A DNA stretch of 64,000 nt from Octopus vulgaris. Its lineage: Eukaryota. The position numbers and the translations under genes are program-made. Shown in pieces: positions 4,150-56,873 of the stretch (positions within the stretch are counted from its first letter, which is position 1; the number at the start of each line of letters is the position of its first letter). Where the stretch lies: contig OX597825.1 of the NCBI GenBank assembly GCA_951406725.2, positions 58,466,001 to 58,530,000 of the forward strand. The letters run 5' to 3'. The notes beneath the pieces are model-generated. The model saw only the letters and a list, made by a program, of their open reading frames with translations. It ran no database searches and had not been told where the DNA came from.

Positions 4150-5200
4150 ATATCTGTGCCAACTGTAAATGTAGACTATGTCATATTTTTGTGGAAGACA
4201 TCACATGTGATTAGCAGCAACCCAAAAATGTCATCAAAGTACTACCTTCCTATGTGACATGATGTTGTTGCAAAAACAATGTACAATGCTATTTAGAAAA
4301 AAGACTGTCCTGGAATAAATACAGAGAAACCTGTTATTGAACACATACACAAATACCAGCACAATGAATGCTGGTGGAACATTCCCATAAAAATATCTGT
4401 CAAGTGTAAACATAAGAGGATGGATATTGTTGCTTGAGACAGACAAGAAAAAGTGTGTACCATCATAGAGGTCAGCTGTCCTGCTGATGTGAACATCTCT
4501 TTGAAAATCAAAGAGAAAGAGGATAACTATTGACAACTGCTTTGAAACCCTCCAGTTTCTGTATGTGGATTACAAATTTACATTTGGAGGAGAAGGAGAC
4601 TCCCTTCAGTCATGAAAGACCATGGGATTGCACCTAGAAAGTTACCCTCCGAGGCACAAGTCTGGGCAAGATTGTTTGTGGAAGGCTAGTAGTAGTCACC
4701 CATGCATACCGGCCTCCTCTCTCCACGCCACCAGTGTTATCCAAGGGAAAGGTAAAGGCTGATACAGCTTGGCACCAGTGATGTTGCAACTCATTTCTAC
4801 AGCTGAGTTACTGGAGCAACGTGAGAAATAAAGTGTTTTGCTCAAGAACACAACACACAGCCTTGTCCAGGAATCAAACTCACAACCTCATGATCGTAAG
4901 CTCGACGCTCTAACCACTGAGCTATGCTCCTTCACACAAATTTACATTTATACCAATAATAATTGGTGCACTTGGTTTTGTAAGTAAATGCCTAACTGTC
5001 AGTCTGGATAAGCTTGGATTTTCAGAAAAAGAAATCAACCAACTGATTTGCCCATTACAAATACAATCAGTAAGTGGAACAGTAGAACTATGCAAGACTT
5101 TTCTCAGGTTTAAAATGTGACATTGTTTACGTTATCTACATTCCAAAGATGGAGCTTCGTATCTTTGTCAGAAACCAGCTCCTTCTTCAGAGGATGAATT
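4150..5200 (+). mobile_element. Decayed 3' part of an RLE-encoding non-LTR retrotransposon (R4/CRE/NeSL-like), split by a SINE
   Basis: Reads KCRLCHIFVED..HVISS..KMSSKYYLPM*HDVVAK (zinc knuckle/RHD), then DIVA..IEVSCPADVNISLKIKEKEDNY (PD-D/ExK-type), then IPIIIGALG..LQIQSVSGTVELCKTFL. Stops and frameshifts are present. Confidence 0.8.
4586..4935 (-). mobile_element. tRNA-derived SINE (family D head) with 14-bp TSD
   Basis: Head GTGAAGGAGCATAGCTCAGTGGTTAGAGC with A and B boxes on the minus strand. TSD ACAAATTTACATTT at 4572-4585 and 4936-4949. Confidence 0.9.
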
Positions 5201-19799: not shown

Positions 19800-19864
<65 letters not shown>

Positions 19865-19870
19865 ATATAC

Positions 19871-20038
19871 ATGTTTTTATGTGCTAACAGTTTCATATGT
19901 CGAGAACTGCCCCAAACATATTCATCAGTAACAAGCCATATATCATAATGAGTTCTTTACGATATATGTGGTTTGTGCTTGATGAATATGTTTGAGGTAT
20001 TTTCAACACATGAAACTATTACTAGCGCATAAAAACAT
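19871..20038. mobile_element. Head-to-head fold-back pair of eroded hammerhead-bearing pseudo-LTRs
   Basis: Arms 19871-19948 and 19957-20038. Minus arm reads CTGATGA-ATATGT..ACATAT-GAAAC-TGTT-AGCAC; plus arm reads TTGATGA...GAAAC. Confidence 0.7.
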
Positions 20039-20134
20039 ACATTGTGTCTATTAGATAATATTTATCTCTCACCACATGGAGTACTTTTTAGTTGATCACG
20101 GAACAGTACATTATATATATATGATCACGGAATA

Positions 20135-20177
<43 letters not shown>

Positions 20178-20328
20178 TAAATAAATAGAGTTGAACGCTG
20201 ATGCTATTCAAATTCTTTTACTTTTGACATATGTTTCAAAGACAACATTGGTTTTATAGCGTTCTGTTTATCATTTATGCAGTCAGCAAAATTGTTATGA
20301 TGTTTTGTTGTTGAGATAGGTTCTCTTT

Positions 20329-20414
20329 CTTTCCTGATGAGAAGATTGCATTTTTTTACACCGTTTATTCCTTTGGAATAAAACCAATATTGTCTTCGAA
20401 ACATATGTCGAAAG
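20329..20414 (+). ncRNA. Minimal type-I hammerhead ribozyme (intact core)
   Basis: Stem I CTTTC/GAAAG; CTGATGA 20334-20340; stem II GAAGA/TCTTC; GAAAC 20398-20402; palindromic ACATATGT stem III; cleavage triplet GTC 20407-20409. Confidence 0.85.
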
Positions 20415-20667
20415 TAAAAGAATTTGAATAGCATTTGCGTTCAATTCCATTTATTTACTTATACTATACAAATTACTGCACATTAACCCAGAGTTTCTAC
20501 CTTTGAATAGGTCACTACATCCTTGTTACTTGCATGAATTTTGCTACCCTGGTAACTGTTTATTGGATTTTCCATGTTAACGGTAAACAAAGGATAATTC
20601 ATTCATCCATTTACATATATATATATATATATATACATATATTATTCTTATACAAGAATGTTGTTGA

Positions 20668-20710
20668 CAGTGACTTTGAAGTTTCGGCCAGCTAAGCCAT
20701 CATCAGACTG
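20668..20710 (-). ncRNA. Minimal type-I hammerhead ribozyme (intact core)
   Basis: Minus strand: CAGT-CTGATGA-T-GGC..GCC-GAAAC-TTCAAA-GTC-ACTG. It lies in a fold-back with arms 20641-20693 and 20718-20770. Confidence 0.8.
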
Positions 20711-21108
20711 CTAGATAAGCTGGCCAAAACTCCAAAGTTACTGTCAACAACATTCTTGTATAGGAATAATAAATTTGTACTGCTCACAACTGAGATTTTA
20801 TCCAATGAATGACTGTTGTTCACATGATTGTTCTGTAGCCTGTCTGGAACTTTCCGTGAACACACCCTATAAAGCTGCAAGTGTACCCCACTGAAAAGAC
20901 CAAAAGAGCAAAAACGAATTTGATGCTCTTGCTGACCACTGCTGGGACAAGTTTTCATCTCTGATATTTATTGTTTTTAACACAGTAAGTCCATAACAAA
21001 TGTTATCTCAGGACAAATACTGCAGTAACTTGCCTATTAACAGTGTATCTATATTATACTATAAAGATGGTAATTTTAGTTAGAAATTGCCTCAGTTGTA
21101 TTTATCAG

Positions 21109-24606: not shown

Positions 24607-24849
24607 TATATCTATAAAATGAAAAAAAAATACATGTAAATCCCTACCATTTATTTGGTGTAGATGGGTAATATCAAATAATTCAATCACAATATATATT
24701 TAAATTAAACATGAAAAAAATTGAAATATCATCACTTACATGGAAAAATAGAAATATTATCTTTCAGTAGTTTATAAGGTAAAATCTTAAATTATTAATT
24801 AATATATTATCAATTATCTTATAAAAGCAATGCCTGGAAAAATCATGGA

Positions 24850-25342
24850 TTACATGGAAAAATACAAGCATGAAAAGTAATATTCTTAAGATTATAAACC
24901 TGGAAAAGTACAGGACAAGTTATTACACCTGTAAAAGTATAGAACAAGCTATTACTTCTAGTAAAGACTAAAAAACATTTTACTTAAAATATTGCAGCTA
25001 AAATTAAAATTTGAATATTAAAACTCATTTTATTATAGTTTACAAATAACACTAATTTAAGTAGAATTTGGCTAATTTACTACCTTAAATACAGAAAAAA
25101 GTGACTAATTAGGCAAACTTACAGTTTTGTACAATAAATTTATAAGATGAGAACTGAAAAGAGTGATAAATTAGAACTGGCATTCTTTGCTGCAATATTT
25201 TAAGTAAAAAGTTTCTTATTCTTTACTTTACTAGAAGTAATAGTTTGTCCTATACTTTTACAGGTGTAATAACTTGTCCTGTACTTTTCCAGGTTTATAA
25301 TCTTAAGAATATGACTTTCCATGCTCACATTTTTCCATGTAA
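24850..25342. mobile_element. Foldback/MITE-like element with ~150-bp inverted arms
   Basis: TTACATGGAAAAAT...ATATTGCAGC (24850-25002) versus GCTGCAATAT...ATTTTTCCATGTAA (25185-25342); internal ~29-bp tandem subrepeat. Confidence 0.7.
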
Positions 25343-25445
25343 TATATATATATATATGATGTGTGTATATATATATACATATGTATATATATATAAATAT
25401 ATGATTTGTATACATACATGCATACATACATACATACATATATAG

Positions 25446-56519: not shown

Positions 56520-56873
56520 CAGTTCTATGTTTAAGACATGAGGAATTATGTACATTATTTACAATTGACAGATATTTGTCCTCATCTTGTTTGTTGTTAA
56601 CACAATGTTTCAGCTGATATACCCATGGGTATATGGCATAGTGGTTAAGAGCGCGAGCTACTAACCCCAAGATTCCGAGTTCAATTCCAGGCAGTGACCT
56701 GAATAATAATAATAATAATAAAAATAATAAAATCAAAAAATACCTTAGGAATTAGAACTCAGGTTCGAAATTTCCCCAAGACACCTGATGAAGGCTGGAA
56801 GGTATATTAGCCGAAACGTTGTGTTAACAACAAACAAGATGAGGACAAATATCTGTCAAATGTAAATAATGTA
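56520..56873 (+). mobile_element. Fold-back element: tRNA-derived head + (AAT)n + hammerhead + tail
   Basis: A box TGGCATAGTGG at 56634; B box GAGTTCAATTCC at 56677; arms 56551-56623 and 56801-56873. Confidence 0.85.
56780..56825 (+). ncRNA. Minimal type-I hammerhead ribozyme
   Basis: GACAC-CTGATGA-A-GGCT..AGCC-GAAAC-GTT-GTGTT; palindromic AACGTT in place of a stem III hairpin. Confidence 0.75.

Follow-up and report, generated by a model that had tools for sequence, protein, structure and literature searches.

A hammerhead-bearing fold-back in octopus DNA as the two-armed, 5'-truncated end of a Hydra-like Penelope-like element

Hammerhead motifs with an inverted copy of part of their own sequence beside them raise the question of whether the antisense arm regulates the putative ribozyme or is simply a trace of how the DNA was inserted. 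One such locus lies in a 64,000-nt stretch of the Octopus vulgaris genome, called here the window, and a preliminary description had proposed that its upstream arm acts as a built-in off switch. The locus is the cut-short 3' end of a common octopus Penelope-like retroelement. Very likely it represents a two-armed, 442-nt stub of a Hydra-like element in a (TA)n site, whose inverted arm arose from the insertion itself, when the ends of a DNA break primed at two fixed sites on the RNA.

The two inverted arms (20172-20257 and 20378-20463) are 86 nt long and 92% complementary, with 79 of 86 positions paired and 7 mismatches (3 G-U, 3 A-C, and 1 U-U). Both their presence and the fact that they duplicate only the 3' half of the hammerhead had been stated correctly before. 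The fold check suggested at that time also favors the fold-back, since the 292-nt region folds at -128 kcal/mol, far better than its shuffles (z -18; 0 of 200 as good). The extent first given, 20172 to 20463, holds for the fold-back but not for the element, which by homology to other copies continues 150 nt further, up to 20613. The complete order is (TA)n, inverted arm, direct arm, and (TA)n (Table 1). The inverted arm carries 4 private changes, two of them at CpG, and the direct arm starts at a point where the endonuclease (EN) ORF of other copies has already stopped, about 200 nt upstream.

Table 1. Features of the insertion and of its surroundings, in positions of the window.
Feature	Position	Strand	Remarks
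(TA)n microsatellite	20139..20175		likely target site, left half; most family arms adjoin (TA)n
Inverted arm	20172..20257	-	copy of the 3' region of the element, truncated 5'; fixed end 1 (+54 from cut site) forms its outer end
Arm-arm junction	20256..20257		2-nt overlap fitting either arm
Direct arm	20258..20613	+	5'-truncated Penelope-like element copy: 3' UTR end / pseudo-LTR (pLTR) and tail; outer end is fixed end 2 (+204)
Type I hammerhead motif	20329..20414	+	stem I 20329-20333 paired with 20410-20414; further outward extension predicted
Core box CUGAUGA (CTGATGA)	20334..20340	+	core pattern
57-nt stem II domain	20341..20397	+	lower helix of 11-12 bp (20341-20352 with 20386-20397), then internal loop and apical hairpin; from covariation and fold
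Stem II apical hairpin	20364..20382	+	central TATT/GA-T letters invariant or nearly so in four families
GAA box, stem III, C17	20398..20409	+	GAA 20398-20400; 8-nt palindromic stem III 20401-20408; C17 20409, predicted cleavage after it
One-sided tail	20464..20613	+	150 nt, from fixed end 1 to fixed end 2; in a full-length sister element its homologue is the 5' UTR ahead of the ORF
(TA)n	20614..20640		likely target site, right half
Second fold-back	20632-20779		71-nt arms, 85%; directly 3' of the right (TA)n; separate family, 2610 first-look candidates
Short Hydra-type hammerhead core	about 20665-20710	-	inside the second fold-back
Third, older fold-back	19846-20065		75%; between TA arrays; both strands with decayed hammerhead-like cores; first look gave 1551 candidates
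Fold-back	24849-25343		118-nt arms at 94%, 29-nt internal tandem units, ends at a TA-rich array
Hammerhead-like motif	56775-56840	+	preceded by a tRNA-like head and an (AAT)n run; centroid fold shows stems I and II

Judged by its sequence, the motif is a type I hammerhead, with a CUGANGA core box (20334-20340), a GAAA box (20398-20401), and GUC as the NUH cleavage site (20407-20409). All the parts named in the preliminary description are present, namely the intact core, stem I CTTTC/GAAAG, stem II GAAGA/TCTTC, an inner hairpin, the palindromic stem III, and the GTC triplet. Stem II, however, had been taken as too short: the base GAAGA/TCTTC (20341-20345 with 20393-20397) and the hairpin stand, but some 6-7 further pairs (20346-20352 with 20386-20392) prolong the helix. 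In the window copy one of these extension pairs is broken by an A at 20389, where the family has G, and its hammerhead contains a longer T run than that of the family. No match at gathering score was obtained from Rfam anywhere within the 64-kb window, a miss likely explained by the long stem II insert. The 116-nt hammerhead region by itself folds no better than shuffles (z -1.0). Due to this and to the lack of an Rfam match, the support for the hammerhead is comparative rather than thermodynamic. Without the arm, the hammerhead fold of the window copy lies 3.6-7.8 kcal/mol above the ensemble, and those of seven other copies, with fewer forced pairs than in the window copy, lie 1.6-3.5 kcal/mol above it. 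Stem III remains open in the forced monomer folds, and a duplex formed by its palindrome is valued at -7.0 kcal/mol. Inspection of the hammerhead alignment identified no tertiary contact between loops I and II.

The comparative evidence comes from an alignment of 27 hammerheads, hand-picked from 107 distinct matches to a pattern that fixed the core and the outer 3 pairs of stem III, and belonging to four sister families (A, the family of the window copy, B, C, and D) of a single genome. The covariation check suggested earlier is passed: 94.1% of 648 cells are paired in the proposed structure and 7 of 24 pairs have changed on both sides, in rows that are related and amount by our reading to about 7-8 independent events. 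None of 500 shuffles scored as high, and controls with slid partners were only 34-53% paired, versus 94%. Two-sided changes affect 1 of the 5 pairs in stem I and 5 of the 11 in stem II. The central pair of stem III is UA in 15 of the 27 rows, CG in 6, and UG in 6, and a two-sided change, seen in family D and in one copy of family B, leaves the palindrome intact. A consensus fold computed without guidance recovers 9 pairs, all in lower stem II, 3 of them compensated, while a measure of further pair types gave no excess over shuffles (474/500). The four pairs tested in the apical hairpin hardly vary, so that covariation offers no proof for this hairpin. As far as alignment can tell, stems I to III covary across the four sister families, and the long stem II is therefore a conserved feature.

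The family to which the window copy belongs is abundant. A first look returned 2037 candidates for the region, a 23-mer over the 5' core common to families A and B has 1044 exact matches, and a 24-mer near end 1 has 569, with no match for the reversed control in either case. Among the loci examined, 79 long matches are 71.7-95.2% identical to the window copy (median 91%). Most of the best matches have no upstream arm and continue into the 3' UTR and the end of an ORF with endonuclease motifs. One locus (L081) repeats the layout of the window with a longer body, consisting of (TA)n, an inverted fragment, 2 kb of reverse transcriptase (RT) and EN coding sequence, hammerhead, tail, and microsatellite. 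Subfamily B, found by a protein search of the genome, is about 80% identical in the EN; families C and D share about 50% identity with A and have open frames of up to 934 codons. No full-length ORF of family A was found; the whole ORFs come from families C and D. The most complete unit, in family D (L161, 1347-5335), runs through a pLTR with hammerhead, 5' UTR, an 895-aa ORF, 3' UTR, hammerhead, tail, and (TA)n. Its hammerheads (1353-1475 and 5010-5132) lie on either side of the ORF, so that partial tandem pLTRs with a hammerhead are present in this unit. The tail matches the 5' UTR ahead of the ORF, as expected from a tandem template. The five 895-aa ORFs compared in family D (L161, L162, L163, L164, and L177) are 97.4-99.7% identical, and arm pairs in this family reach 99.8% identity; because the ORFs are open and these values so high, sequence comparison indicates that family D has been active recently. 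On contig C1, two groups of loci (L031-L037 and L053-L055) are single insertions later multiplied by segmental or tandem duplication.

The protein encoded by these elements is a single ORF with an RT plus, at its C-terminus, a GIY-YIG-type endonuclease, whose motifs align with homologues. Searches in a library of 1.84 billion proteins retrieved 3930 relatives at E<=0.001. Octopus is the source of the closest proteins that bear a name, one of which matches a genome locus at 98%. Pfam returned no RT or GIY-YIG family for the family proteins P0001-P0003 or for two full-length ORFs, and gave only sub-threshold RVT_1 and GIY-YIG matches for the homologue P0009, while a sequence search of the PDB yielded nothing informative for the family proteins. 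Since neither Pfam nor the PDB names the domains, the RT-EN assignment follows from motifs and homologues. The DKT motif is present in family D (the family A copies do not include that part), as are CxxC and CxH around the conserved E and N, and there is no CCHH. The RWK position reads RWL in family D, and among the homologues bearing CxCX5C one has RWP and one RWR. In the alignment with homologues, the CxCX5C linker before the endonuclease is absent from A, B, and D, which hold an Asn/Ser-rich stretch at its position; a looser CxCx4-7C motif occurs in 93 of the 107 homologues covering the EN. At that same site, L081 (4240-4350) and other family A copies show an (AAT)n expansion inside the ORF, which results in a poly-Asn run of variable length.

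Taken by its sequence features, the locus is an EN+ Penelope-like insertion that carries a type I hammerhead motif, a predicted ribozyme. Its closest described counterparts belong to the Hydra clade, which includes Hydra-1_Obim. According to the portions of Craig et al. (2021, PMC8557442) used here, members of this clade share with the octopus family an RT followed by a GIY-YIG-type EN without CCHH, the DKT, CxxC, and CxH motifs, insertion into (TA)n (shown in the octopus by the flanks of the family arms), a 3' type I hammerhead, and an inverted 5'-truncated copy at the 5' end (Penelope-13_HM, File S1). However, the same source gives the clade a CxCX5C linker, which the octopus family lacks, a generally smaller unit (under 3 kb, versus about 3.7 kb with an 895-aa ORF), a shorter stem II (by eye, about 12-24 nt in the File S2 rows for Hydra, versus 57 nt), and a usual tail of 30-40 nt instead of 150 nt. 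Hydra-1_Obim itself has a different hammerhead and represents another family (PMC8557442). The element is accordingly described as Hydra-like on its motifs, and not filed as a member of the clade. The length of loop II is not unique in itself, as the Selaginella PLE-X1 rows of File S2 (PMC8557442) also contain a long one.

The hammerhead resembles in several respects the minimal and palindromic type I hammerheads of metazoan Penelope-like elements (PLEs; Cervera and De la Pena 2014, PMC4209133). As reported in the sections of that paper considered here, these have a short palindromic helix III, G10.1-C11.1, a location in the pLTR, opposite-strand motif pairs 100-700 bp apart, and predicted activity as dimers. 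Their helix II has 7-8 bp, whereas that of the octopus family has 11-12 bp plus an internal loop and an apical hairpin. Palindromic stems III have been noted in hammerheads of repeats as well (PMC3088659, in part).

The fold-back architecture is ordinary and has already been published for Penelope-like elements: an inverted 5'-truncated copy often adjoins the 5' end of the insertion (PMC8557442, Fig. 2 legend), and a tail of 30-40 bp is often found at one end only (PMC8557442, as excerpted). Such an inverted copy is also present at the 5' end of the octopus elements, and the 86-nt arm of the window is ordinary within the range of family arm lengths. What can be counted in this family is how the arms are combined. 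In family A the outer ends are fixed, end 1 at +54 and end 2 at +204 relative to the cut site, and families B and D have them at equivalent positions; the one-sided tail between the two ends measures 150 nt in A and about as much in B and D, unlike the typical 30-40 bp. Among 59 head-to-head junctions at loci of families A, B, and D, 46 join an end-1 arm to an end-2 arm (3 of these repeat one event), none is 1+1 or 2+2, and 13 are without a call. Family C was left out of this count, as its reference has no tail. Another 74 loci of A, B, and D have no head-to-head junction within the stretch examined. Most of the 59 junctions abut or overlap by 1-5 nt, and the longer arm can belong to either end (25 and 21).

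A second sample, which overlaps the first, comprises 95 end-1 arms (99 less 4 repeats) among the matches listed, 100 of 214 pattern matches. Within it, 61 end-1 arms have an abutting partner, which is end 2 in 48 cases and end 1 in a single one (L199), 12 being without a call; a locus of family C (L169) may be a second 1+1 case. The end-1 arms listed have a median length of 126 nt (quartiles 64-188, n=95), values that are approximate, as are the inner ends, since indels cut the alignments short and self-matching led to a misreading of three short arms. Arm ends could be expected at the cleavage site if reverse transcription had run off RNA cleaved in vivo; no such excess was found among the matches listed (3 of 95 at -2..+2, versus 2.0 expected, P=0.33), and this candidate fossil of cleavage was rejected. 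The ends listed are more frequent at -10..+1 (11 versus 4.8 expected, P=0.011), in an interval chosen post hoc and over a palindrome that resembles the TA target, and show no excess in the apical hairpin (11 versus 7.7, P=0.15). Hairpins near the two fixed ends are weak (z -2.35 and -0.24). In four insertions (L049, L093, L114, and L050) the tail arm ends within about 10 nt of end 1, abutting the RNA start site of the other arm, which is as expected if both arms were copied from one RNA molecule.

A family in which end 1 is joined to end 2 fits priming from both sides of one DNA break. A biochemical precedent is provided by PAc, the Poseidon element of the green anole (Frangieh et al. 2024, PMC11167929), as presented in the parts of that study consulted for this purpose: the purified Penelope protein cleaves and extends both strands, uses two internal RNA start sites that define the tail, and acts on AT-rich targets. 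The hammerhead of the anole element is assisted by the protein, and is not needed for insertion in vitro (PMC11167929, in part). The PAc tail has 30-40 nt and lies inside the start of the ORF, whereas the octopus tail has 150 nt and lies in the 5' UTR. In addition, according to the same parts of that study (PMC11167929), PAc shows no strand-specific start site in vitro, in contrast to the near-strict rule of one arm per site in the octopus genome, so that the in vitro data do not reproduce this rule. Given the fixed ends and the anole data, double-sided priming with one side per site is the simplest mechanism.

The insertion in the window may then have proceeded as follows. An endonuclease would cut both strands within (TA)n. 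One of the DNA ends would prime at site 2 (20613), giving rise to the 356-nt arm, and the other at site 1 (20463), giving rise to the 86-nt arm, and the truncated cDNAs would be joined over a short overlap. The hammerhead, located just upstream of both start sites, would simply be carried along. Double priming is also known from L1, where in twin priming two primers from one target site produce an inverted 5' part with a short overlap at the junction. The octopus insertions share these three traits and differ in that both arms often copy the same stretch of RNA and in that both start sites are fixed.

The arm could nevertheless have acquired a function, or even have been made for it. It is transcribed first and covers the 3' strand of stem II, GAAA, stem III, the cut site, and the 3' strand of stem I, and in silico the hammerhead fold costs 41 kcal/mol in its presence, up from 3.6-7.8 kcal/mol. 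The earlier statement that the antisense arm sequesters the ribozyme is thus borne out in silico, whereas the notion of a built-in off switch is not. An element that makes its own antisense arm to silence the ribozyme in read-through transcripts would be expected to place it at a fixed position and keep it paired by selection, and no such part was found in the family insertions. Among the matches listed, the inner ends of the end-1 arms stop short of the ribozyme in 12 cases, inside it in 41, and beyond it in 42 (n=95, approximate). In 46 two-armed insertions, the shorter arm leaves the ribozyme uncovered in 15 cases, reaches over part of it in 20, and spans it entirely in 11; where it spans the whole, the other strand also carries a hammerhead. 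Moreover, of 102 end-1 arms, 28 contain a complete strict hammerhead of their own and 70 lack a partner that overlaps the end-1 region. Pairing is not favored either: in 13 fold-backs with the hammerhead intact on one strand only, the mismatches are 18 G-U, 19 A-C, and 23 other (P=1.0), and arm identity is 95.3% in fold-backs with a one-strand hammerhead against 95.0% where neither strand has one. The evolved switch is thereby highly improbable, and the claim that it explains tolerance inside host transcripts finds no support, as the arm is the known 5'-truncated inverted copy, of variable length and without pairing bias. A filter acting after insertion, whereby copies with an accidentally covered ribozyme survive better inside genes, is physically plausible given the fold cost, and the copies of family D are young enough for a measurable effect; it remains improbable, as there is no sign of selection for pairing between the arms and monomers are expected to be nearly inactive anyway (PMC4209133, in part).

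The short and non-coding nature of the unit could also suggest a non-autonomous retrozyme, or a MITE-like element with terminal inverted repeats, spreading as a 290-nt unit, and 5 of the first 29 other loci do match across the fold-back. However, junction and arm length differ from one such copy to the next, the exact 20257/20258 junction is shared by none of those listed, and most of the best matches start only from 20253 and run into the 3' UTR and ORF. Non-LTR retrozymes (10.64898/2026.07.22.740005 and PMC7229834, each in part) are likewise non-coding, related to PLEs, and equipped with a type I hammerhead, but as defined in the available portion of the former they consist of tandem direct units, each with a hammerhead. 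The octopus stub has a single motif, a head-to-head layout, and copy-specific breakpoints, and the window locus contains no tandem array of hammerhead units. The probability left to this reading is close to negligible.

With the arm taken as a product of insertion, tolerance of the motif can be explained more simply by a dimer requirement than by an off switch. In the parts of PMC4209133 that deal with activity, a single metazoan PLE hammerhead shows no cleavage, and dimers and trimers have low activity. The octopus ribozyme would work as a dimer through its palindromic stem III, a partner that a two-copy transcript, tandem or full-length, can provide. Since stem III requires dimer formation, a solitary stub would have next to no activity whether the arm is present or not, and lone copies are thus probably inactive as monomers. 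If the locus were read through on the + strand, the arm would further block the ribozyme, as a side effect. Dimeric hammerheads of PLEs have reportedly been treated by Lunse et al. Contigs assembled from four runs, presumed to be RNA, are deep over the family region and carry the family letters (G at 20389 and A at 20299), not those of the window copy; they leave the upstream arm uncovered in 3 of the 4, and have no bearing either way on transcription of the window copy.

What appears to be new in detail is that stem II forms a 57-nt domain, that the tail measures 150 nt, and that insertion into (TA)n takes place without the CxCX5C linker. Searches of openly readable full texts found no account of the octopus family, its long stem II, a counted rule of one arm per end, or (TA)n insertion without that linker. 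The octopus family is a counter-example to the proposed link of the linker zinc finger with (TA)n targeting, and the one-arm-per-end count constrains the unsolved second-strand step of Penelope insertion. The open, near-identical ORFs of family D permit the in vitro assay published for the anole element. A hammerhead with a covarying 57-nt stem II, present in more than 1,000 copies, is missed by Rfam here, and would also be missed by a search with 7-17 nt spacers such as that given in the methods of PMC8557442 (in part). File S1 of that paper contains eight Naiad half-cores with boxes 35-50 nt apart, which may be long-stem II hammerheads; inspection by eye of two 3' ends from this source gave no clear picture.

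A broader reading, possible but doubtful, would see a recently active octopus Hydra-like lineage defined by three properties: asymmetric double priming by two RTs, probably one protein dimer, at two fixed RNA sites 150 nt apart, one for each DNA end; (TA)n targeting without CxCX5C; and a stem II extension serving as a docking site, either for protein or for a tertiary contact that switches on the dimeric ribozyme. If this were true, hammerheads with long stems would escape standard descriptors, and might hide in elements called hammerhead-less.

Besides the insertion described here, two neighboring fold-backs from unrelated, high-copy families, both with hammerhead-like cores, are located no more than 600 nt away in the same series of TA arrays (Table 1), and the layout is therefore generic.
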